Source of the DNA: a virus
Virus record (IMG/VR): IMGVR_UViG_3300033074_001474
Coordinates: 1-47,445 of that record
DNA length: 47,445 nt
Strand: one strand, 5' to 3'
The notes below the pieces were generated by a model, which searched no databases, had not been told where the DNA came from, and saw nothing but the letters and a program-made list of their open reading frames with translations. Shown piece after piece: positions 1 to 47,445 of the stretch (the stretch's first letter is position 1; each line of letters opens with the position of its first letter). Made by a program: the position numbers and the translations under genes.

Positions 1-96
1 GCCGTAGCCGTCGCCGTAGCCGTTGCCGTTGCCGTAGCCGTCGCCGTCGCCGTTGCCGTTGCCGTAGCCGTCGCCGTCGCCGTAGCCGTAGCCGTA
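1..96. repeat. GCCGTN hexanucleotide array (N = A/T/C only), copy 2; runs off the window start and continues from 47380..47445
   Basis: 16 perfect in-phase hexamers gccgt[a/t/c]. The first 60 nt are identical to 47386..47445. Confidence 0.9.
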
Positions 97-138
97 GGAT
101 GTTTTTTGATCTTCAAAATTTATTGTTCTTTTAGACAT
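1..138 (-). CDS. (Tyr/Asn/Asp)-Gly dipeptide-repeat small protein, copy 2, 5' part (3' end at 47374..47445 if the window is circular; about 49 aa)
   Basis: ATG at 138 gives the same N-terminus, MSKRTINFEDQKTS, as the 46517..46756 ORF. The ATG lies inside ATGTCTAA, overlapping the stop of the upstream 112-aa ORF. Confidence 0.55.
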   Translation of the reverse strand, partial: MSKRTINFEDQKTSYGYGYGDGDGYGNGNGDGDGYGNGNGYGDGYG

Positions 139-469
139 ATTTTTTCCAAAGAGTTTGATTACAGCTTATTGCTGTAACAACTGTTAGATAATCGAATTCT
201 ACTAATCCATTAGTGGGATCTAATTTTGTTGAAGAAGTTGGACCATTTCCCGCTATTTCTCCTAATCCTCTTGTTGTTCCCCAATTACGAATTACACTCG
301 CTCCATGGAGTTTACATTCACTTCCATTTCTCTCTAAACGCCCCACCATTACCCAGCCACGCTGCAATACTATTATTTTTATATCCCCTTCGTACTGCTG
401 TTTTTGTTCTGAACCTTTTTGTACGTAAGTGACTCCATTTATTTGAATCTCTGTTACTTCTTGTTTCAT
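131..469 (-). CDS. hypothetical protein, 112 aa (identical second copy at 46749..47087)
   Basis: ORF track. The protein duplicate is identical. GGAG-type RBS upstream. No family recognised. Confidence 0.7.
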   Translation of the reverse strand: MKQEVTEIQINGVTYVQKGSEQKQQYEGDIKIIVLQRGWVMVGRLERNGSECKLHGASVIRNWGTTRGLGEIAGNGPTSSTKLDPTNGLVEFDYLTVVTAISCNQTLWKKYV

Positions 470-502
470 TTTACTTCTCCTTTGTTTAAATTGATAATTT
501 CT

Positions 503-691
503 TTATTTCCCATGATTCCACATCCAAGGGGTGCTCTTTTTAACGCTTAACTCCTGAACTAATTTCTCTTGTGATGTAACCTTTAAATCCTTTAGTATAC
601 TAGGCACCAAGATAGCTGCTACTAGCACACTTAAAGCCAAACTATTACCTTTCATCTGAACGCTCCCACTCTTTTTCTGCATGACTTGCAT
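503..691 (-). CDS. small membrane/secreted protein (62 aa from the ATG at 691)
   Basis: Hydrophobic stretch LALSVLVAAILVPSIL. GAGGGAG lies 6 nt upstream of the ATG at 691. The longer 721 start lies outside the duplicated segment. Confidence 0.5.
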   Translation of the reverse strand: MQVMQKKSGSVQMKGNSLALSVLVAAILVPSILKDLKVTSQEKLVQELSVKKSTPWMWNHGK

Positions 692-923
692 TGTAATCTC
701 CCTCAAAATCTTGATACTCATATAAGTTAATCATAGCTTCTTTTTCTTCTAACTTCCAATTTATTTTTTCATATGTCTCAAAATCGATATTAACAGCCTT
801 CCCATCTTGGGATGTTATATCAACGTCTTGTATTAATATCCCATTAACAGGAGAAAATTTTAAACTAAAGGATACTAATAACCCCTCATACTCAAAACTT
901 CTTTCATACATATCTTGGCTCAT
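645..923 (-). CDS. hypothetical acidic protein, 92 aa
   Basis: ORF track. Its last 59 nt are duplicated and fused into the chimeric ORF at 47263..47370. Confidence 0.6.
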   Translation of the reverse strand: MSQDMYERSFEYEGLLVSFSLKFSPVNGILIQDVDITSQDGKAVNIDFETYEKINWKLEEKEAMINLYEYQDFEGDYNASHAEKEWERSDER

Positions 924-1195
924 AGTCCTTCGCCCCCATCTTTCTTTTCTTTTGGTTTTTCCTTATACTTAGGACACCAGTGAGAGTGCCAATACTGTGA
1001 CTCTTCAGTTTGCTTGTATGTTACATCAACGCCGCACTCGCATTTAGCTGATATAAACCTTGCTTGATCGTTCTCTGCGCCCATCCAGTCCATGAAGCTA
1101 TCTTGATTTCCTGGTGGTAGTTTGGGGGACCAAGACCCTGACATAGTTACTTTTATATATTTCCATACTTCTTCATTTTCTTCTTTAGTAAACAT
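920..1195 (-). CDS. hypothetical Cys/His-containing protein, 91 aa
   Basis: ORF track. 4-nt start/stop overlap with neighbours. CECG...HSHWC is a possible metal-binding motif. Confidence 0.6.
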   Translation of the reverse strand: MFTKEENEEVWKYIKVTMSGSWSPKLPPGNQDSFMDWMGAENDQARFISAKCECGVDVTYKQTEESQYWHSHWCPKYKEKPKEKKDGGEGL

Positions 1196-1525
1196 CTATT
1201 TACCCTGTTGACCTTGTTGTTCCTGTTGTGATTGAATAAAGTCTAAGAACTTTTGCATGAAAGCTTGAGATTTCTCTGAAATACATGCAGCTACGAATTG
1301 TTCAAAAGGAGGAGTATCTCTTTGTAACCCCCCTTGAATAGCTAGGGATTCGCACTCAGCCCTAAAGATTTGCTCTAATTGAGCGGAGATTTCGATTGAG
1401 TGGACAATCCTAGCGGTAGCTTCGCCTGATGTTACGATGTCTAATCTTTTGGGAATGTTTACTCTGTTATTAAACCCACATGAACATAAGCTAATAACTG
1501 CTAAACTTAACATTAACTGTTTCAT
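1196..1525 (-). CDS. secreted protein / lipoprotein candidate, 109 aa
   Basis: N-terminal signal-like MKQLMLSLAVISLCSCG. Confidence 0.6.
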   Translation of the reverse strand: MKQLMLSLAVISLCSCGFNNRVNIPKRLDIVTSGEATARIVHSIEISAQLEQIFRAECESLAIQGGLQRDTPPFEQFVAACISEKSQAFMQKFLDFIQSQQEQQGQQGK

Positions 1526-1533
1526 TTTAATAT

Positions 1534-1872
1534 CTACCCTTCCCTATGCCATTTTAATTTGTAACTGTCATATCCTAGGTCTATAATCTGTTTATAAAGC
1601 TTGTCTAAATTCTCATCTAAAGTATTTCTGTCTTTTATACTATTTTTGTATTTCTTTATGCAACTTTTAATTTCTTTCGCATTATACAAAGAATCAATAT
1701 AACGTTTAGCATCCTTTAAACTCTCAAACTTCTTTAGTCCAACTCTGAAAATTTCATAACTAATTTCTTGATATGTACCTGTACCTCTGGTATCACATCC
1801 TTCTCTCTCTCGAATTTCTTTATAATGAGATTCCCATTCAGTTTTTATTTTCTTATTTTTGTAAGTAATCAT
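1534..1872 (-). CDS. hypothetical protein, 112 aa
   Basis: ORF track. Same-strand operon packing. Confidence 0.6.
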   Translation of the reverse strand: MITYKNKKIKTEWESHYKEIREREGCDTRGTGTYQEISYEIFRVGLKKFESLKDAKRYIDSLYNAKEIKSCIKKYKNSIKDRNTLDENLDKLYKQIIDLGYDSYKLKWHREG

Positions 1873-1958
1873 TTTAAATCCTCACCATTAATACCAAGAC
1901 CACTATTTAAATCTTCATAAATTTCTTGTAAATGCTTTAAATCGTTTATCTTTTTCAT
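1869..1958 (-). CDS. 29-aa mini-ORF (MKKINDLKHLQEIYEDLNSGLGINGEDLK)
   Basis: Fills the gap between two genes exactly, with an ATGA start/stop overlap at both ends. Below the ORF-track size cutoff. Confidence 0.3.
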   Translation of the reverse strand: MKKINDLKHLQEIYEDLNSGLGINGEDLK

Positions 1959-2716
1959 CCTAACACCTCTTTCAATTCTTGTCTTATCTTGTCATCTTGT
2001 TTAGCTTGAAAATACTTATCAGCCGTTGTGATTGATGACCAGCCAAAGATTCTTTTAATATCAGCATGAGAAAATCCCGACCTAGAGAGTTTTGTAGCAA
2101 GAAGTTTTCTGAGTGAATGTGGTTTAAGCCCAATCTCTCTAAGAGCCTTTCTCACTTGGTACTCTCCTGGAAGTTTCCCTCTGTAGTCAAAAAATACAGT
2201 TCTCTCAATCCCGCCCTTACCAATCACAGACGATGTCTCATGATTTACGTTGTAAGCTTCTTCAATCCTAAGTCCTGAATTCAAAAGGGCCATGCAAAAT
2301 CCGCGAACAGCTTCGTCTTTAATCAAACTAATTTTCTCCCTAGCAGTATCGAAATCTATTTTCAATCTCTCTGGTCTGTAGGCTCTGTTCATTGCTGTAC
2401 GACTTCGGTGCATTTCATTCTTAAAGGGGTTTAAGCCCTTAGGGAATGCGCCCTTGTTAGCTCCAAACTCATAATAAGAGGCTGCACGTATTAGCATAGT
2501 CTTTATCGTATAAGAGCCGTAGCCTCTATCCGTGAGGCTTTTATGAAATTCATTTCCTGACATACCAGTCTCTGTTTTAATAATGTGAATAATTTTCTTA
2601 AGCCTAGCTGCTTCTGATTTATAACAAGATTCAGTCCAAGCTGTTTTATGAAAGTCTAAATACTTGTCGTAAAGTTCCCAATAAGTATCTCTTAAATCAA
2701 CCGTTATTTTTTCCAT
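1955..2716 (-). CDS. tyrosine recombinase / integrase-family protein (short, 253 aa)
   Basis: Catalytic-type motifs: SGLRIEEA (Arg), GKGGIERTV (Lys), PHSLRKLLAT (H-x-x-R), GWSSITTADKYF (Trp/His position plus nucleophile Tyr). Confidence 0.8.
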   Translation of the reverse strand: MEKITVDLRDTYWELYDKYLDFHKTAWTESCYKSEAARLKKIIHIIKTETGMSGNEFHKSLTDRGYGSYTIKTMLIRAASYYEFGANKGAFPKGLNPFKNEMHRSRTAMNRAYRPERLKIDFDTAREKISLIKDEAVRGFCMALLNSGLRIEEAYNVNHETSSVIGKGGIERTVFFDYRGKLPGEYQVRKALREIGLKPHSLRKLLATKLSRSGFSHADIKRIFGWSSITTADKYFQAKQDDKIRQELKEVLG

Positions 2717-3152
2717 CTAATCCTCTTGCATTAAGATTAGATTGGTTTTGTGAAATAGTCAATCGATTTAAGGTTTCATTCTGTACTTTTAATATCTCAA
2801 TGAAAGAATTCATAGCCTCTTCGAGCGCAACTACGCGGGACTCAAGAGGATTTGGTTGTGGAGCTTGAATCTCAGGTTGAGATTGGATTTCTGGCTGTGT
2901 CTGGATTTGAGACGCAGCGACTTCATTAGCTGCAGCTTCTTGTGATCCTCTTTTTGCCATTATTGCTGTTAGCATTGAATTTGATCCAGAATACGTTGCA
3001 ATAACTCCAAGAATCCCAACAACAACTTCTGTTGTCAGATTCATTGGATTAAGACTAGCTAAGATAACAAGTGCTACCATCCCAATTAAAGAGAGTAAGA
3101 ATTTTCTTCCGCCAAAGCGTTGAAAAACATCCTTTGATTCATTTTCATTCAT
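2697..3152 (-). CDS. membrane protein, 151 aa
   Basis: Two hydrophobic helices (FLLSLIGMVALVILA, VVVGILGVIATY). QPEIQ short repeats. Confidence 0.6.
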   Translation of the reverse strand: MNENESKDVFQRFGGRKFLLSLIGMVALVILASLNPMNLTTEVVVGILGVIATYSGSNSMLTAIMAKRGSQEAAANEVAASQIQTQPEIQSQPEIQAPQPNPLESRVVALEEAMNSFIEILKVQNETLNRLTISQNQSNLNARGLDGKNNG

Positions 3153-7014: not shown

Positions 7015-7569
7015 TTATTCCCCATTTTTCTTCCTCTTTTTATATTTTTTCCAGTTTTTCTTATTATACTCTTTCATATAAGCTTTTCTATCCACAGGTA
7101 GTTTAATTTTCCTTCTATTTAAGTTTTGCGTTTTATATGTAGCCCATCTTACATTTCCTGGCTCGTAGTTACCATTATTATCAATTCTATCTATGGTTAG
7201 ACCTTCTTTAGGTAGATTGTCCATATAGTCTTTAAATAGCTGAAAATTATTTTTCCAGTCCTCATATACAGAAATCCCTCGGCCACCATAGTGCATAAAT
7301 TTTTTATCTTTAGCATTATAACACCTCTGTATGATGCTTACCCAAACTTTATACAACTTTGTATCACTTGCCCCATGCCGCATTGTAGAACAAGATCTAC
7401 AACTCTTTGTTAATCCTCTTGTAACATTCTCAAGAAAAGGATAAAATATAACCCCGCAAGTATCGCAGAAAACCTCAGCAATATAGCGTCTTTTTGGGGT
7501 CGTTCGCTCTGGCCTATTATCAATATAATCCTTAAAAGAGAATCTGTTATTTAATATTACTACTCCCAT
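7015..7569 (-). CDS. HNH_3-like (degenerate, D-R) homing-endonuclease-like protein
   Basis: YKVWVSIIQRCYN...YGGRGISVYEDW...TIDRIDNNGNYEPGNVRWAT..QN.N. N-terminal Cys pairs. Paralog of 13706..14284. Its start overlaps the DNA polymerase stop by 10 nt. Confidence 0.6.
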   Translation of the reverse strand: MGVVILNNRFSFKDYIDNRPERTTPKRRYIAEVFCDTCGVIFYPFLENVTRGLTKSCRSCSTMRHGASDTKLYKVWVSIIQRCYNAKDKKFMHYGGRGISVYEDWKNNFQLFKDYMDNLPKEGLTIDRIDNNGNYEPGNVRWATYKTQNLNRRKIKLPVDRKAYMKEYNKKNWKKYKKRKKNGE

Positions 7570-9500
7570 GTAGCATTTGCTCCGCCATCTACTGTTAAAG
7601 GAAGATTTTTATCTCCTACTGGGAGTTTGAATTTGGTAAACTCATATTCAATTCGTTTACATAATTCTTCAACACTATTGCCATCAATCTCCGTCAATAC
7701 AGAATCATGAATAAATCCTAAGGGAGTACATCCTTTAATTGCAGCTATGTCTGTTGCAGCTTGCTGACATAGATCGGAAGCTGATCCTTGAATGAGTCTA
7801 TTAAGACCCTTCATATAAACATCTTCTGGGTTATCAATCTTAAACGGCCGCCCGAAAAGATTGAATAATACTGCCCCGGATTCAAGTTCGGCATCCAGTT
7901 CTTGTTTGAACTTCCAAACTCCTGAATAATGCTCCCGTAGGTTGTACACAATATCTTTACACTGCTTTTCAGTTACATGTAGCCCTTGTGAAGTAGTTTC
8001 AGCTTGAACCCTCCGCCAACCGCTGCCATAAATACAGGATAATCCAACCGTTTTAGCAATAAACCTTAATATAGGATAAGCATCTTTAACCTCGGATTCT
8101 GTAATTCCTGGCTCCATAAAATTATGGAACATAGTAATAGTATTTAGGTTATGGAATGACTGTCCATTAAAAATTAAATCACACAGGGCTTTATCTTGAC
8201 TGAAGTAAGCTAGTATTACAGGCTCAATAGCGCCTAAGTCATAGGTTGCTATTAGTTTACCTGGTGAGGCTTTAAATAAGGGCTTAAGCGATTTAGGTGT
8301 TTGTTGAAGGTTCGGGTTGCTGCACGATAATCTACCAGTCCTCGTACCATCAAAATTAAACGTAGAATGAATTTTTCCTTTGTACTCTTCTTTTCTATAA
8401 GTTGGAAGAAATCCAGTTAAAATCTTTGAAGTCTCTCTGTACTCAAGCAGTGTTTTAATCTCGGGCTCAGACTTGGCAAGCCTCTCAAGGACTTCAGCTC
8501 CTGTGCTCTCTTCTCCGTAAAAGTTTCTAATATCAAGCTTTAAATAGTCTTTAAGAAGCCATTTCATCTGCACTGGAGAATCTAGATTAAATTTAAATTC
8601 GCTTTGAGCGTACGCTTTATCGTACAGATTTTTATATTTTAGTTGTAGGTTATCTACATCCTTTGGCTTTTTAGTAGGTTTTTGATAAGCCTTTTCAAAC
8701 ATCTCTTGATATTTCTTCTGAAGATTTAAAACTTCAATTCTTTCATACTCGTTAAAAGCCTCGCCCCACTGTCCATAGATTTTATTTTTGAGTTCCTGTT
8801 CCTTTTCTTTAAATTCACCTTCGAGCTTATTAAGCTTCTCAACATCAAAATTTATTCCAGTAACTTCGGCTTGCAATAAGGTTCTAGCCCAGGGCATTCC
8901 GTAATTGCAGTAGAAATCTAATTGAAATAACTTTTTAAGTCTTTGTCTTAAAAAAAGACGAAGCTGCGTGGTATACCGCACATCTAAAGTTACATACTCA
9001 TCTGAATCATGGTCTGCTGGATTTTCCCAAAAAGGCTGAACACCTAGAAAATACGGGGCCAAAGTTTTAAGAGAGTGTAGCCCTGCTGGTCTATGATTTA
9101 TTCCTGGGGGCAGTTCCTCATTTAGTCTTTTTCTGTCCTCTTCATAAACGCCTAGCCAATGCTCATCTATTTTATCCGTACACACATAGGCCATAAGCCT
9201 CGTGTCTTCCTCGTAAGCTGAGTATCCGTTAGCGGGGAGGGAACCTAAGTGGTGTGTTAAAACTCTAAAATCCCATTTGAAATTGTGGCCACAGAATAAA
9301 AATTCAGGATCATTCCAAATCTCTTTTTTGAAGGTTTCTAAATCTCTGTATATGATAACTTCATTACTTTCTCTAGATGCATTCTGAACACCAATGACTG
9401 TTATTTTATTTTTAAAGGGATTCAGAGCATCTTCTTTTTCAGAAGTTACACTTTGGGTCTCAATATCTATCGTAAGCAGGGTTTTATCAAAAACACTCAT
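7560..9500 (-). CDS. family A DNA polymerase with 3'-5' exonuclease domain
   Basis: Exo I: LTIDIETQS. Exo II: HNFKWDFRVL. RTGRLSCSNPNLQQTP. Motif A: YDLGAIEPVILAY. Motif B: RFIAKTVGLSCIYGSG. Motif C: FIHDSVL. Confidence 0.9.
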   Translation of the reverse strand: MSVFDKTLLTIDIETQSVTSEKEDALNPFKNKITVIGVQNASRESNEVIIYRDLETFKKEIWNDPEFLFCGHNFKWDFRVLTHHLGSLPANGYSAYEEDTRLMAYVCTDKIDEHWLGVYEEDRKRLNEELPPGINHRPAGLHSLKTLAPYFLGVQPFWENPADHDSDEYVTLDVRYTTQLRLFLRQRLKKLFQLDFYCNYGMPWARTLLQAEVTGINFDVEKLNKLEGEFKEKEQELKNKIYGQWGEAFNEYERIEVLNLQKKYQEMFEKAYQKPTKKPKDVDNLQLKYKNLYDKAYAQSEFKFNLDSPVQMKWLLKDYLKLDIRNFYGEESTGAEVLERLAKSEPEIKTLLEYRETSKILTGFLPTYRKEEYKGKIHSTFNFDGTRTGRLSCSNPNLQQTPKSLKPLFKASPGKLIATYDLGAIEPVILAYFSQDKALCDLIFNGQSFHNLNTITMFHNFMEPGITESEVKDAYPILRFIAKTVGLSCIYGSGWRRVQAETTSQGLHVTEKQCKDIVYNLREHYSGVWKFKQELDAELESGAVLFNLFGRPFKIDNPEDVYMKGLNRLIQGSASDLCQQAATDIAAIKGCTPLGFIHDSVLTEIDGNSVEELCKRIEYEFTKFKLPVGDKNLPLTVDGGANATWE

Positions 9501-32598: not shown

Positions 32599-35187
32599 AT
32601 GGCAAATAACAGCTTCAAAATAAAAAAGTCAATAAATATTGAGCCTCTAGCAAGCCCCACGCTAAATGCTGAGGGCGATATTGGAATGAACTCTACTTCA
32701 CATAAGCTCGAGGTCAGAGATAACTCAGCCACGCGCAGCGTGGTTACAGAAGATGGAACCGCTACACTCACTAATAAAACCTTTGATGCAGATGGAACAG
32801 GAAACTCAATAACCAACATTGAGAACGCCGACATCAAAGCCGCAGCTGCTATAGCTTTAAACAAGCTGGCTGCAACCACAGCAAGTCGCGCACTAGTTTC
32901 AGATGCATCTGGTTTTGTTTCAGCTGCAACTACGACTTCAACAGAGATTGGTTATGTGAATGGGGTCACATCTGCAATTCAAACTCAAATTGATGGAAAA
33001 ATTTCTGCTTCAAGCTCTGACACTCTAACAAATAAAACAATTGATGCAGATGCAAATACTATAACTAACATTGAGAACGCCGACATCAAAGCCGCAGCTG
33101 CTATAGCTTTAGATAAGTTAGCCGCAACCACTGCATCAAGAGCTTTAGTCTCTGATGCGTCAGGATTTGTAAGTGCAGCTACTACGACTGCTACTGAGAT
33201 AGGCTACGTGAATGGAGTCACATCTGCAATACAGACGCAGCTGGATGGTAAGATTGCTAAAACATTGACTACCACGACTGGGGATATGATTTATGCATCA
33301 AGTGCTAACACCCCAGCTAGACTTCCCATAGGTTCTGCTGGACAGGTGCTAAAAACTGTTGGAGGAATTCCGGCTTGGGCCGCAGCTTCTTCGGGAGGCA
33401 TCAACTACATTTCATCTAACCCTGATGCCGAAGCCGATACTACTGGCTGGGCAACGTATGCTGATGCCGCAGGAACAAGTCCTGTAGATGGAACAGGTGG
33501 AAGCCCCAATATCACTTGGACAAGAACTACATCGTCGCCTTTGCGTGGATCGGGCAGCTTTCTTTTTACTAAAGACGCAGCAAACAGACAAGGCCAAGGC
33601 GCTTCCTATGACTTCACTATTGATTCATCAGATAAAGCAAAAGTTCTTACAATAAATTTTGATTATATTGTGGGAAGTGGAACGTTTAGCGCTGGTTCTA
33701 GCTCTGCAGATTCAGACTTAACAGTTTGGATTTACGACGTAACCAACTCACGATTAATTCAACCAAGTACTATTAAATTATTTTCTAACTCAAGCACTAT
33801 TGCGGATAAATATTCTGCACAATTTCAAACGTCAAGCGACTCAACATCTTATAGATTAATTTTCCATGTAACTTCTACTAGTGCGTCTGCTTATACACTT
33901 AAGTTTGATAATTTCTCTGTTGGACCAAGTTCGTATATATTTGGAACTCCTGTTACGGATTCAAAAAGTTACTCCCCTGCTGGCAGTTGGGAAAATACCA
34001 CTTACAGTGGACAATATTGGAGAGTTGGAGACAAGTTTAATGCCCAGATAAATTTAACATTTTCATCCGCACCTACAACTTCCGATTTTTCTATGACCCC
34101 CGCTCAATTGTTTAATGGTTTGGGAATAACGCTCGATACAGCTAAGTTAGGTTCTGGAGTGATTTCTATAGGAACTTGGGCTGCTCGTGACTTGGGTACA
34201 GCAGAATACAGTGGATCACTCTATCTTTATGCGGGCACAACAATTTATATGGGTGATATTGATGGAAATGGTAACGTCACTAAAACAAATCCTTTTACGA
34301 TTGCTTCTGGAGATTTTTATGACTTACAAATTCACAATCTCCCTATTCTTGGCTGGTCATCATCTGTTCAAATGAGTGACTCAGCTGATACTAGAGTGGT
34401 TGCCGCTGGATACTCAACACTATCCTCAACATCATATACTTCCCCTAATGCAATTGTTCACACCACGAAATTATATGACACACATAACGCTTACAATACC
34501 AGTACAGGGGAATACACTGCACCAGTACCGGGAATATATAAAATAACAATTGGACGTACATATACAGGATCAGGAACCATAAATTATGGAATATATAAAA
34601 ATGGATCAATTTCATTAACAGCAGTAATTCAAGCGGGATCAGTAGCCAGAGTTAATGGCAGCGCCTCAATTCAAGTAAACGCTGGAGATAAGTTAACTGT
34701 AGTTGGAGATACTTCAGTAACCTTTGGAGATACTGGAGGTTATATCTTTTTTGAAAGACTTTCTGGCCCTTCAGCCATAGCTGCTACTGAGACTATTGCA
34801 GCTAAATATACGGCAATAAACACGACGACGTTTACTACCTCAGGAGTTGTGGCAGATTTTGCAACAAAGGTCTTTGATACTCATGGAGCGGTAACTACTG
34901 GGGCGTCTTGGAAATTTACAGCTCCAGCTTATGGAATTTATCATATATCATTAGGATTTTATCCATCATCTACAGTTGGCTTAATCATCAATTTACAAAA
35001 AAATGGGTCGGCTGTTGAAAGACTTGCAGAAATAGCTGCTAGCAGTACAGCTAAAGAAATTAGTGCCTCTACAGAAATTTTATTGAATGCTGGAGATTAT
35101 ATTGACCTAAAAGGTTTTGCAGGATCAACAACATTAACTTTTTTTAATGATTCTACATTAAATAGAATAAGCATTTTTAGGATTTAA
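32599..35187 (+). CDS. tail fibre protein with internal tandem repeat
   Basis: 862 aa, Ser/Thr/Gly/Ala-rich, with an ~86-aa duplicated module near the N-terminus. Confidence 0.65.
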   Translation: MANNSFKIKKSINIEPLASPTLNAEGDIGMNSTSHKLEVRDNSATRSVVTEDGTATLTNKTFDADGTGNSITNIENADIKAAAAIALNKLAATTASRALVSDASGFVSAATTTSTEIGYVNGVTSAIQTQIDGKISASSSDTLTNKTIDADANTITNIENADIKAAAAIALDKLAATTASRALVSDASGFVSAATTTATEIGYVNGVTSAIQTQLDGKIAKTLTTTTGDMIYASSANTPARLPIGSAGQVLKTVGGIPAWAAASSGGINYISSNPDAEADTTGWATYADAAGTSPVDGTGGSPNITWTRTTSSPLRGSGSFLFTKDAANRQGQGASYDFTIDSSDKAKVLTINFDYIVGSGTFSAGSSSADSDLTVWIYDVTNSRLIQPSTIKLFSNSSTIADKYSAQFQTSSDSTSYRLIFHVTSTSASAYTLKFDNFSVGPSSYIFGTPVTDSKSYSPAGSWENTTYSGQYWRVGDKFNAQINLTFSSAPTTSDFSMTPAQLFNGLGITLDTAKLGSGVISIGTWAARDLGTAEYSGSLYLYAGTTIYMGDIDGNGNVTKTNPFTIASGDFYDLQIHNLPILGWSSSVQMSDSADTRVVAAGYSTLSSTSYTSPNAIVHTTKLYDTHNAYNTSTGEYTAPVPGIYKITIGRTYTGSGTINYGIYKNGSISLTAVIQAGSVARVNGSASIQVNAGDKLTVVGDTSVTFGDTGGYIFFERLSGPSAIAATETIAAKYTAINTTTFTTSGVVADFATKVFDTHGAVTTGASWKFTAPAYGIYHISLGFYPSSTVGLIINLQKNGSAVERLAEIAASSTAKEISASTEILLNAGDYIDLKGFAGSTTLTFFNDSTLNRISIFRI
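32770..33260 (+). repeat. two tandem ~250-nt (~86-aa) modules inside the tail fibre gene
   Basis: TNKT(F/I)DAD..ITNIENADIKAAAAIAL.KLAATTASRALVSDASGFVSAATTT.TEIGYVNGVTSAIQTQ.DGKI occurs twice. Long identical nt runs include 32816-32860 = 33068-33112. Confidence 0.85.
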
Positions 35188-37262: not shown

Positions 37263-38015
37263 ATGCCCACATTATCAATAACAAAAACTTATGCAGATGG
37301 AGAAGTTCTTTTTGAATCAGATTTAGATAGTATAAAAAACGACATTGAAACATTTCTTAATACTACTAAAATTGATGACGATAATATTCAAGACGCTGGT
37401 ATTACAGCATCATCTAAGTTAATAGACGGAACTATTACTACTGGCAAACTTGGCGCGGCTTCAGTAACAACTGCTAAGATTGCAGACTCAGCGGTGACTA
37501 CAGGAAAAATTGCAGATTCCGCAGTAACTACTGCAAAGATAAATGACTCTGCTGTAACAACGGCCAAGATAAATGATGGAGCTGTAACTACAGCTAAGAT
37601 TGCAGATGGGGCGGTAACATACGTTAAAAGAGTATCATTAAATTATAAATTAAGTAGTTCTAGTGCAAGCTTTTCAACATCATCAACATCTTATACCGCA
37701 GTAACAAATTTGAGTGTAGCTAGTCTCACTACTAATGGTCGTCCGGTATATGTATCCTTGGTCCCTGCTGAAGGCAGTTTATCAAGCTTTGATCAGTCTG
37801 GTGCCACAGGATCTATATCACTACAATTAGTGAGATCAGGTGCAGTAAACTTAGGGGAACAAACATTTATTTTAAGTTCTGGACAAAGTTCTGGAGTAAC
37901 TCCCTCTTGGATTTGGCTACCAACAGCTGGAACCTATGATTTATCTATTAGCATCAAAGTTTCTGCTGGAACCATTGGAGTAACTAACTACAAACTATTT
38001 TGTTACGAGTTATAA
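37263..38015 (+). CDS. fibre-like protein, paralog A (250 aa)
   Basis: N-terminus M.T..ITKTY.DG..L.E.DLD..KN..ETF.NTTK..DDNIQ.AGITAS.KL.DG.IT is shared with 38019..38780. Confidence 0.55.
37452..37620 (+). repeat. 27-nt (9-aa) tandem repeats (S/G)AVTT(A/G)KI(A/N)D, about 6 units
   Basis: [55 protein letters not shown]. Confidence 0.75.
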
Positions 38016-45797: not shown

Positions 45798-46314
45798 ACT
45801 GAACCTCCAAAAAACCTGGATTATAGCTCTCTGATATGAAAAAATCCTCTTTATTCAACTTTTTCCTAAGAGAAAGTATAGCGAACCTAACATTTGCCTT
45901 ATTAGTATCATAATTAATTCTTTTAGGTTTTCTATCTATCTTACAGCCAAGTCCATACCAAGACGAAACTGCTTTTTTTTGTTTCTTTGGAAGCTTATTA
46001 ACAGCGGCATTAATTCTAATAACACTGTCCTGCTCCATTAAAATATCCTCAACATTAGCAGATTTGTCCCGTAATCTTATTGCAACAGTCTCCTCTGGAA
46101 AATATCTCTTATTAACCTGCCTTATATTTAGAGCCTGGTTATAAATGCATTGTGATATAAATGCTTTAATATTCTTCACAGTATCCTCTTTAGAGAGGAT
46201 TCTAATAGCTAGAGACTGAATTACATCCTCGGCTAACTCCCTCTTTTTAACTACTTTATAGGCTATTTGTAAGTAGTAATTGTAATTTTTATAAAGCTCA
46301 TCAATTAATATCAT
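45787..46314 (-). CDS. sigma-70-family (ECF-sized) sigma factor-like protein
   Basis: Region-2-like ELAEDVIQSLAIRIL. Region-4-like LPKKQKKAVSSWYGLG. 175 aa. Confidence 0.5.
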   Translation of the reverse strand: MILIDELYKNYNYYLQIAYKVVKKRELAEDVIQSLAIRILSKEDTVKNIKAFISQCIYNQALNIRQVNKRYFPEETVAIRLRDKSANVEDILMEQDSVIRINAAVNKLPKKQKKAVSSWYGLGCKIDRKPKRINYDTNKANVRFAILSLRKKLNKEDFFISESYNPGFLEVQYGE

Positions 46315-46513
46315 CTATTGCCTCTGTTGATTTTCTGTTTAAATTATATTCAATATTGATCTTATTTATTTCACAAAAAGCCTTAACTATATAAAAGACG
46401 TTAGCCGAGCGTGGGTCAACATCTGTTGGGCGAGTTTCATCAACCCACATCCTCGTGGCTGCCTCACGAATCTCTTCTAATGAATTTTTATCAAATTTTA
46501 TATTGAAGCTCAT
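46301..46513 (-). CDS. hypothetical protein, 70 aa
   Basis: ORF track. Its first 52 nt are duplicated at 47319..47370. Confidence 0.6.
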   Translation of the reverse strand: MSFNIKFDKNSLEEIREAATRMWVDETRPTDVDPRSANVFYIVKAFCEINKINIEYNLNRKSTEAIDDIN

Positions 46514-46516
46514 AAA

Positions 46517-46756
46517 TCACCAGCCGTAGCCGTTGCCGTAGCCGTCGCCGTCGCCGTTGCCGTTGCCGTAGCCGTCGCCGTAGCCGTTGCCGTAGCCGTC
46601 GCCGTAGCCGTTGCCGTTGCCGTAGCCGTCGCCGTTGCCGTAGCCGTTGCCGTAGCCGTAGCCGTCGCCGTCGCCGTTGCCGTTGCCGTAGCCGTCGCCG
46701 TAGCCGTAGCCGTAGGATGTTTTTTGATCTTCAAAATTTATTGTTCTTTTAGACAT
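46517..46756 (-). CDS. (Tyr/Asn/Asp)-Gly dipeptide-repeat small protein, copy 1 (79 aa)
   Basis: MSKRTINFEDQKTS plus 32 x (Y/N/D)-G plus W. The ATG overlaps the upstream stop (ATGTCTAA). The stop TGA is followed 3 nt later by the next ATG. Confidence 0.6.
   Translation of the reverse strand: MSKRTINFEDQKTSYGYGYGDGYGNGNGDGDGYGYGNGYGNGDGYGNGNGYGDGYGNGYGDGYGNGNGDGDGYGNGYGW
46523..46714. repeat. GCCGTN hexanucleotide array, copy 1 (32 units)
   Basis: 32 in-phase gccgt[a/t/c] units. G never occupies the variable position. Confidence 0.95.
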
Positions 46757-47087
46757 ATTTTTTCCAAAGAGTTTGATTACAGCTTATTGCTGTAACAACT
46801 GTTAGATAATCGAATTCTACTAATCCATTAGTGGGATCTAATTTTGTTGAAGAAGTTGGACCATTTCCCGCTATTTCTCCTAATCCTCTTGTTGTTCCCC
46901 AATTACGAATTACACTCGCTCCATGGAGTTTACATTCACTTCCATTTCTCTCTAAACGCCCCACCATTACCCAGCCACGCTGCAATACTATTATTTTTAT
47001 ATCCCCTTCGTACTGCTGTTTTTGTTCTGAACCTTTTTGTACGTAAGTGACTCCATTTATTTGAATCTCTGTTACTTCTTGTTTCAT
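46749..47087 (-). CDS. hypothetical protein, 112 aa (copy 1; identical to 131..469)
   Basis: ORF track; identical protein. Confidence 0.7.
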   Translation of the reverse strand: MKQEVTEIQINGVTYVQKGSEQKQQYEGDIKIIVLQRGWVMVGRLERNGSECKLHGASVIRNWGTTRGLGEIAGNGPTSSTKLDPTNGLVEFDYLTVVTAISCNQTLWKKYV

Positions 47088-47120
47088 TTTACTTCTCCTT
47101 TGTTTAAATTGATAATTTCT

Positions 47121-47309
47121 TTATTTCCCATGATTCCACATCCAAGGGGTGCTCTTTTTAACGCTTAACTCCTGAACTAATTTCTCTTGTGATGTAACCT
47201 TTAAATCCTTTAGTATACTAGGCACCAAGATAGCTGCTACTAGCACACTTAAAGCCAAACTATTACCTTTCATCTGAACGCTCCCACTCTTTTTCTGCAT
47301 GACTTGCAT
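47121..47309 (-). CDS. small membrane/secreted protein (copy 1; identical to 503..691)
   Basis: Same ATG and RBS as 691. Lies within the duplicated segment. Confidence 0.5.
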   Translation of the reverse strand: MQVMQKKSGSVQMKGNSLALSVLVAAILVPSILKDLKVTSQEKLVQELSVKKSTPWMWNHGK

Positions 47310-47370
47310 TGTAATCTCCCTCACGAATCTCTTCTAATGAATTTTTATCAAATTTTATATTGAAGCTCAT
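47263..47370 (-). CDS. 35-aa chimeric junction ORF (MSFNIKFDKNSLEEIRE|GDYNASHAEKEWERSDER)
   Basis: The first 17 codons of the 70-aa gene are fused in frame, at a TGAGG/CCTCA microhomology, to the last 18 codons of the 92-aa gene. Confidence 0.4.
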   Translation of the reverse strand: MSFNIKFDKNSLEEIREGDYNASHAEKEWERSDER

Positions 47371-47445
47371 AAATCACCAGCCGTAGCCGTAGCCGTCGCC
47401 GTAGCCGTTGCCGTTGCCGTAGCCGTCGCCGTCGCCGTTGCCGTT
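47319..47445. repeat. tandem duplication, unit 2 (start; continues at 1..705 if circular)
   Basis: See unit 1. Confidence 0.8.
47374..47445 (-). CDS. (Tyr/Asn/Asp)-Gly repeat protein, copy 2, 3' end (partial at window edge)
   Basis: Same ...GYGW-TGA ending as copy 1, at offset 857. Confidence 0.5.
   Translation of the reverse strand, partial: NGNGDGDGYGNGNGYGDGYGYGW

Follow-up and report, generated by a model that had tools for sequence, protein, structure and literature searches.

Phages and poxviruses are well known to adapt rapidly by tandem duplications that are bounded by microhomology. In phage T4, amplifications of dmd-tifA obtained under toxIN selection have unique boundaries of 6–10 bp microhomology with one copy left between the repeats (Srikant et al. 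2022, PMC9391042), and earlier T4 duplications involved rII and gene 16-18 (PMC9391042). For poxviruses, the amplification of K3L has been described as a "genomic accordion" (Elde et al. 2012, as cited in PMC9391042). Here we report a microhomology-bounded tandem repeat in the IMG/VR virus record IMGVR_UViG_3300033074_001474, whose contig of 47,445 nucleotides (nt) was analysed at its full length (positions 1 to 47,445; hereafter the window). A segment of about 0.8 kb occurs there twice, head-to-tail. It carries the small gene mem62, the gene p112 for a protein of 112 amino acids (aa) and the gene GY for a protein built of Gly-X dipeptides. A duplication of this type is an already known kind of rearrangement, found here at a widespread uncharacterised phage gene pair, p112-GY. 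Most of the population probably has both copies within the same genome, as the result of a recent microhomology-mediated duplication.

The closest described systems share some features of this locus. As in the T4 dmd-tifA amplifications, a small segment with several genes is repeated head-to-tail, a single copy of a short homology stands at the junction, and genes are repeated together with their expression signals. In contrast to T4, where 6–10 bp is typical, the homology measures here 5 nt (about 10 nt with a gap), the number of copies is two, and the case comes from an environmental assembly rather than from an evolved clone. The poxvirus accordion is similar in concept: additional copies of a host-interaction gene are gained for a time and later diverge from each other. 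It differs in the type of virus and in the recombination machinery, and the present case is known from its sequence. The coding repeats of contingency loci, which change by slipped-strand mispairing or unequal exchange, resemble the array of GY in that periodic hexamers change the number and order of their units faster than the flanks do. Unlike in contingency loci, changes of 6 nt always stay in frame, so that the length and composition of the protein are altered and expression is not switched on and off.

The tandem repeat and its junction

The window is a complete phage-like genome with genes for a terminase, an SU10-type portal, a capsid protein, PolA, a VapE-like primase/helicase, a sigma factor and a tyrosine-recombinase-like protein, arranged in two mutually divergent arms. 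All genes of the duplicated region are on the minus strand. Coordinates refer to the whole contig; the offset of 767 nt and the join of copy 2 assume a circle of 47,385 nt. Beyond the hexamer array of GY, positions 97..705 and 46715..47323 have 609 of 609 bases in common, and the match runs 24 nt further back into the arrays. Before the array, 46462..46533 and 47319..47390 are the same at 72 of 72 positions, including the motif CCTCA. It is impossible for an exact repeat of 609 nt to arise by chance. The copies are offset by 857 nt before the array and by 46618 nt after it, the latter being equal to 767 nt on the 47,385-nt circle. The whole arrangement is a head-to-tail repeat of one contiguous segment, which runs over 46462..47318, then over 47319..47445 and on into 1..705. 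The preliminary description of this DNA had placed the tandem copies at these coordinates with identical flanks outside the array, and the exact comparison agrees with it; the offsets of 857 and 767 nt given there are also correct, the second one on condition of the 47,385-nt circle.

Copy 1 of the duplicated unit (46462..47318, minus strand, 857 nt), as delimited by exact identities and open reading frames (ORFs), comprises mem62 with its Shine-Dalgarno (SD) sequence, p112, GY with an array of 32 units, and the first 17 codons of a 70-aa gene. Copy 2 consists of two pieces on the minus strand. The first piece (47319..47445) harbors the first 17 codons of the 70-aa gene, which form the head of a chimeric ORF, as well as the GY stop codon and 11 hexamers, and exits through the end of the contig. 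The second piece (1..705) contains 16 hexamers, the GY leader, p112, mem62 and the 3' end of a 92-aa gene. The segment had previously been called a four-gene cassette; genes are indeed duplicated, but the unit is made up of three complete genes and two gene fragments. It is copy 2 that stands in the ancestral context: unique sequence begins at 706, and the related loci L088 and L089 are collinear with the window over 705/706. The order of transcription across the assumed closure is the 92-aa gene; mem62, p112 and GY with array 2; the 35-aa chimera; mem62, p112 and GY with array 1 (32 units); the 70-aa gene; and the sigma factor gene.

The novel junction, where the end of the cassette meets its start, lies at 47318/47319 and reads TGTAATCTCCCTCACGAATCTCTTC. 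A single CCTCA is retained there (47319..47323), and the same motif is found at both parental boundaries (46462-46466 and 701-705), in agreement with the preliminary description. With a 1-nt gap allowed, the homology extends slightly further, to CCTCA-(CG/A)-AATCT, i.e. about 10 nt. The chance of finding microhomology of at least 5 nt at a random junction is P ~0.005. The junction does not lie inside shared sequence of the length of a k-mer or read overlap, as would be expected of a mis-join by the assembler. The 5-nt homology (~10 nt if gapped) is far below any assembler k-mer, and the junction sequence must therefore have been present in the reads. The left breakpoint CCTCA is located inside a small hairpin, TCGTG-GCTGCCT-CACGA (46453-46469); such hairpins are about equally frequent in shuffled sequence.

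The junction creates a chimeric ORF of 35 aa (47263..47370, minus strand), which had already been noticed as an in-frame fusion: 17 aa of the N-terminus of the 70-aa protein are joined in frame to 18 aa of the C-terminus of the 92-aa protein. The ORF was called by the Joint Genome Institute (JGI) on this contig only, and an exact-protein look-up of the chimera gave no match elsewhere. It is probably a by-product of the junction.

The hexamer arrays and the closure of the contig

Array 1 (46523..46714, minus strand) consists of 32 GCCGTN hexamers, which on the coding strand correspond to GGC-NAC and encode Gly-Tyr, Gly-Asn or Gly-Asp; exact repeats within it reach at most 53 nt. In the arrays of the window, the NAC codon varies in its first base only, where T, A and G give Tyr, Asn and Asp, respectively. 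Array 2 is divided between the contig ends: its N-terminal-side piece occupies 1..96 (minus strand, 16 hexamers) and its C-terminal-side piece 47380..47445 (minus strand, 11 hexamers). The last 60 nt of the contig (47386-47445) are identical to the first 60 (1-60), and both lie within the GCCGTN array. This overlap is not trivial when compared with the 53-nt longest repeat inside array 1, yet it is no proof of closure. If the 60-nt (10-unit) overlap between the 11 and 16 hexamers is collapsed, array 2 would contain 17 units. As the circle is closed solely by 60 nt within a periodic array, this length, as well as the resulting difference of 15 units or 90 nt, is conditional.

With each unit written as the last base of its plus-strand hexamer, copy 1 reads ATACCTTACATACATTACTATAACCTTACAAA and copy 2 reads AACATTACCTT plus ACATTACCTTACCAAA. 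The units beside both flanks differ, copy 1 being ATACC...CAAA and copy 2 AACAT...CCAAA, and the copies diverge within 12–24 nt of the flank at both ends of the array. At least two deletions and one insertion separate arrays 1 and 2. Since the arrays are unlike at both ends, they are not related by one slip of 15 units. The preliminary description had counted 32 and 17 units, with a difference of exactly 15, and had attributed it to repeat slippage. The counts of 32 and of 11 plus 16 are correct, but the value of 17 depends on the closure within the array and no single 15-unit insertion or deletion is seen. In the same way, the array does change faster than its flanks (see the isolates of Barba phages below), but one slippage event does not connect the two arrays.

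Relatives and the single-copy state

The closest relatives have 83–90% nucleotide identity in this region and at least 90% aa identity in p112. Their gene order is that of a single cassette: the 92-aa gene, mem62, p112, GY, the 70-aa gene and the sigma factor gene. On the side of the 92-aa gene, this state is found in L085, L088 and L089. Loci L088 and L089 are collinear with 2717..67 of the window: an integrase-like gene comes first, followed by the 92-aa gene, mem62, p112 and array sequence. On the side of the 70-aa gene it is found in L098 and L099. L098 reads through a full array, with p112, a complete GY gene of 95 aa, the 70-aa gene and the sigma factor gene collinear with 46981..46204. 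Of the 84 loci whose copy number was checked, not one has two p112 matches, and the cassette-to-cassette junction is present in no relative.

As the relatives have a single cassette, the duplication is recent and specific to this lineage. The lack of any substitution across ~680 nt of duplicated flank also speaks for a recent event. The preliminary description had called the duplication recent and had named related genomes as a comparison; the single cassettes of L088, L089 and L098 agree with that dating.

Proposed course of the duplication

The following course of events could account for the locus. A segment of ~0.8 kb would have been duplicated head-to-tail, recently, in the phage lineage of the contig. 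Its breakpoints would lie in the short interrupted homology CCTCA-n-AATCT, which occurs once within the 5' end of the 70-aa gene and once within the 3' end of the 92-aa gene. The event was likely an illegitimate recombination or a switch of replication template between sister or concatemeric genomes at this microhomology, a route that has been documented for the tandem amplifications of T4. In this way three co-oriented, translationally coupled genes (mem62, p112 and GY) would have been doubled, with the 35-aa fusion ORF left as a scar. Slippage or unequal recombination may have made the hexamer arrays diverge, either once the duplication was in place or already in its course by unequal exchange; the flanks would not yet have acquired a substitution. 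The assembler would have been unable to pass the second array cleanly, so that the contig starts and ends there.

Weighing of the explanations

There are two distinct array-to-flank boundaries on each side of the array, which means that flanks of identical sequence are joined to two alleles of the array. The simplest explanation for the junction and for both alleles is one genome with two copies. A further indication comes from the protein content of the JGI assemblies. The 92-aa, 91-aa, PolA, terminase, portal, 183-aa, sigma and 70-aa proteins are carried by two JGI contigs, and p112, mem62 and the chimeric ORF by one contig only. A second contig that has the 92-aa gene (645..923) without mem62 (503..691) must end within ~200 nt of position 705. 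Such a stop fits a cassette that forms a repeat node in the assembly graph; with a single-copy genome the assembly would run on to the array. The apparent break of the sibling contig at the duplication boundaries suggests a real feature of the read set and is silent on the fraction of genomes that carry it. We infer that both copies stand on one molecule in most genomes, that they arose by the mechanism proposed above and that the higher dosage may be of benefit.

Several observations weigh against this reading. The argument from the second contig is based on protein counts only, and the duplication is known here from the assembled contig alone. The exact junction was not found in IMG/VR, the contig being the only retrievable sequence that carries it, and a 23-mer from the cassette end was not found in JGI metagenome contigs. 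Other look-ups were negative as well: a 30-mer of the unique region was not found in IMG/VR, exact-protein look-ups of p112 and the 70-aa protein gave no match, and neither did megablast against INPHARED phages. Copy 2 is split over the contig ends, with closure only by 60 nt within the array. Contig ends at such arrays are common: of 56 metagenome contigs that carry a p112 homologue, about 20 end inside the array or at most ~100 nt before it, and all five of the five closest Logan contigs end at most ~70 nt from the p112 stop codon, at the array or just inside it. Finally, at least three array events against zero substitutions in ~680 nt require either a very high mutation rate of the array or alleles of two strains.

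The last point leads to the alternative that the junction is real but polymorphic. Only a part of the population would then have the duplication, the arrays would be alleles of co-existing strains, and the contig would be a composite Eulerian path through a mixed-strain graph. This is possible, although clearly less probable than a genome with two copies. It would agree with the several array events that separate copies with identical flanks and with the co-existing array alleles among Barba isolates. Tandem duplications in phages are, moreover, unstable and usually heterogeneous in copy number (PMC9391042). The second JGI contig that seemingly halts at the boundaries is to be expected of any branching graph, fixed or polymorphic. 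However, this explanation requires that a strain mixture and a duplication be present independently of each other, where a genome with two copies explains everything, and an unresolved branch would normally break a contig instead of threading a 609-nt repeat twice.

It is unlikely that the genome has a single cassette and that the junction is an artefact of chimeric molecules, formed by template switching at microhomology during multiple displacement amplification or polymerase chain reaction, or of a chimeric long read, the partial copy and the closure being assembly noise. Template switching in vitro likewise favours microhomology, the contig ends fall in a type of array that breaks many assemblies, and the junction is found in no independent retrievable sequence. 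Chimeric junctions are, however, individually rare and normally pruned, and one chimeric read would not produce the second copy's own array-to-flank boundaries on both sides. The breakpoints also preserve three intact genes and the mem62 SD sequence, the second JGI contig apparently breaks near the boundaries too, and older duplications of the module occur in other lineages. Least probable by far is a wrap-around, in which the assembler overshot a circular or terminally redundant genome and the repeat is a direct terminal repeat. It is true that 1..705 repeats 46619..47323 and that the contig ends with the same 60 nt with which it begins. But an overshoot past 47323 would read as the sequence after 705 does (AAATCTTGATAC...). 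What follows in the contig is instead the cassette start, CGAATCTCTTC..., and the two copies have different arrays as well. A direct terminal repeat was rejected by the comparison of 47324..47378 with 706..760, since 47324.. reads CGAATCTC... and 706.. reads AAATCTTG....

Genes of the cassette and its borders

The gene mem62 (copy 1 at 47121..47309, copy 2 at 503..691, both minus strand by ORF call) encodes a small protein with one hydrophobic segment. Its SD sequence GAGGGAG overlaps the junction microhomology and is retained in both copies. The exact 62-aa product was called by JGI, and homologues are present in L088 and L089. The p112 gene (copy 1 at 46749..47087, copy 2 at 131..469, minus strand) codes for a protein of 112 aa related to DUF6948. 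The GY gene of copy 1 (46517..46756, minus strand, 79 aa) encodes the leader MSKRTINFEDQKTS, followed by (G-Y/N/D)32 and a terminal W. GY and p112 are probably coupled in translation, since GY has an overlap of 8 nt with the stop codon of p112. The unit extends from the mem62 ribosome-binding site to a point 17 codons into the 70-aa gene, so that three intact co-oriented genes are doubled.

The intact 70-aa gene (46301..46513, minus strand) lies downstream of copy 1, with its 5' 52 nt within the duplicated unit; in L097–L099, its homologues stand immediately behind a GY gene. The intact 92-aa gene (645..923, minus strand) lies upstream of copy 2, with its 3' 61 nt within the unit, and has homologues in L085, L088 and L089. 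No significant match for the GY, mem62, 92-aa or 70-aa proteins was obtained in Pfam, PHROGs, NCBIfam and PADLOC, and the proteins of the cassette have no match among the defence and anti-defence families of PADLOC. Promoter and terminator scans of the cassette stayed at chance level.

The AlphaFold2 (AF2) model of p112 is a confident one, with a predicted local distance difference test score (pLDDT) of 86.7. In Foldseek, it matches 3by7 with an E-value of 6e-4 and a TM-score of 0.72 on the target and 0.51 on the query, followed by dozens of LSm and archaeal Sm-like (SmAP) matches; the viral DUF6948 proteins in BFVD are matched too. According to this model, p112 is predicted to be an Sm/LSm-like barrel, with a five-stranded bent β-sheet that superposes on solved Sm proteins. 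The likeness to 3by7, archaeal SmAP and LSm proteins as well as to viral DUF6948 proteins is one of predicted structure: p112 has no significant sequence match to solved Sm proteins, and a profile search of the PDB sequences gave nothing below E = 0.17. Against Pfam DUF6948 (PF22253) p112 scores 19.7 bits, below the cut-off of 27, and many p112 homologues at 72–80% identity carry a precomputed PF22253 match.

For the 79-aa GY protein, AF2 gives a pLDDT of 39.8 and no confident fold, and a homologue search was uninformative because of its compositional bias. Eukaryotic SmD1, SmD3 and LSm4 carry tails of Gly-X dipeptides (RG). The parallel between these tails and p112-GY is a loose one, as GY is a separate ORF with Tyr, Asn and Asp and not Arg. 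A fusion of p112 to GY by frameshift was rejected for this genome, where the GY frame is full of stop codons upstream; in some relatives this frame is open far upstream.

Some other features of the window and of its relatives may be mentioned here. A direct repeat of 216 nt (77% identity, spacing 252 nt) at 32791-33258 lies in an ORF of 862 aa with a C1q domain (32599-35187) and is probably an internal tail-fibre repeat. A tandem repeat of 30 nt with 5.2 copies and 71% matches is found at 37464-37618 inside the ORF 37263-38015. L088, the closest relative and otherwise collinear with the window, lacks an ORF of 112 aa (1534-1872) that has no relation to p112; this is an insertion or deletion between the integrase-like and lipoprotein genes. 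PolA of the related Logan contig L085 (1171-4014) has 947 aa with an intein-splicing domain, and PolA of the window (7560-9500) has 646 aa without such a domain.

The p112-GY pair in other phages

Among loci L001–L099, an ORF of the GY type comes directly after p112 in all IMG/VR relatives and in nearly all others that reach far enough. These ORFs encode a short leader, often M.KRTINFE[DE], and a (Gly-X)n stretch in which X is mostly Tyr, Asn or Asp, and they usually end with Gly-Trp, Gly-Tyr or Gly-Phe. At least 907 homologues of p112 are present in the protein database, and the pair occurs in 115 cultured Rheinheimera Barba phages. No paper on DUF6948 was found in the literature, and the Barba phage papers that were searched do not mention the locus under the terms used. 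A small membrane protein as a third conserved member of the module was rejected, since it precedes p112 in 18 of 85 rows, many of them redundant; the core is the pair.

Cultured Barba isolates (gp017–gp019, with GY being gp017; L090–L096, L021 and L022) allow a comparison of arrays. Seven genomes, L021 and six others, are 99.7–100% identical over 1,200 nt on each side of GY. Their arrays differ by two independent insertions of one hexamer at different sites and by an Asn/Tyr change. In the eighth genome (L022), with flanks 99.5–99.9% identical, the array is entirely different and 10 units longer. As judged from these sequences, the GY array is a mutational or recombinational hot spot. Since Barba arrays change beside nearly invariant flanks, two copies with the same flanks and different arrays, as in the window, are plausible.

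The codons of the arrays vary by lineage, with GGC or GGA/GGT/GGG for Gly and TAC or TAT for Tyr, and are homogeneous inside each of the 70 distinct arrays. The dipeptide pattern stays constant despite the different codons, which speaks for selection at the protein level and for a repeat that evolves in a concerted manner. A function of the array at the level of RNA or DNA alone is disfavoured, as the Gly and Tyr codons vary by lineage and the G-[Y/N/D] pattern and the leader peptide are kept.

GY genes are found on both sides of p112 in L046 (9687-10650), L060 (62-973) and L078 (2-750), with leaders or tails that are related but diverged. In L041 (1266-2360) a second array-bearing gene pair lies directly downstream; that its second protein, of 126 aa, is a paralogue of p112 is unsupported (hhalign probability 1.8%). 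L046, L060, L078 and perhaps L041 represent older, independent duplications at the same locus. The presence of such diverged tandem copies in other lineages implies that duplication at this locus is recurrent.

Implications

If the duplication is real, it marks the p112-GY module as relevant in dosage and fast-evolving. Microhomology-bounded duplications do not last long and are collapsed by assemblers, which is why they are seldom seen in environmental genomes; the window would then provide a natural example. A more far-reaching interpretation is speculative and in our view rather doubtful. According to it, the duplicated unit is a widespread, undescribed module of an Sm-like DUF6948 protein and a hypervariable disordered GY protein, which has been duplicated repeatedly and whose array outpaces its flanks. 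It would act as a natural accordion at a host-interaction or counter-defence locus, with GY as a new class of effector.

Coding hexamer arrays routinely end short-read contigs, and circularity calls and genome lengths of phages that carry them need caution. The cultivable Rheinheimera Barba phages offer a tractable experimental system for the p112-GY family.

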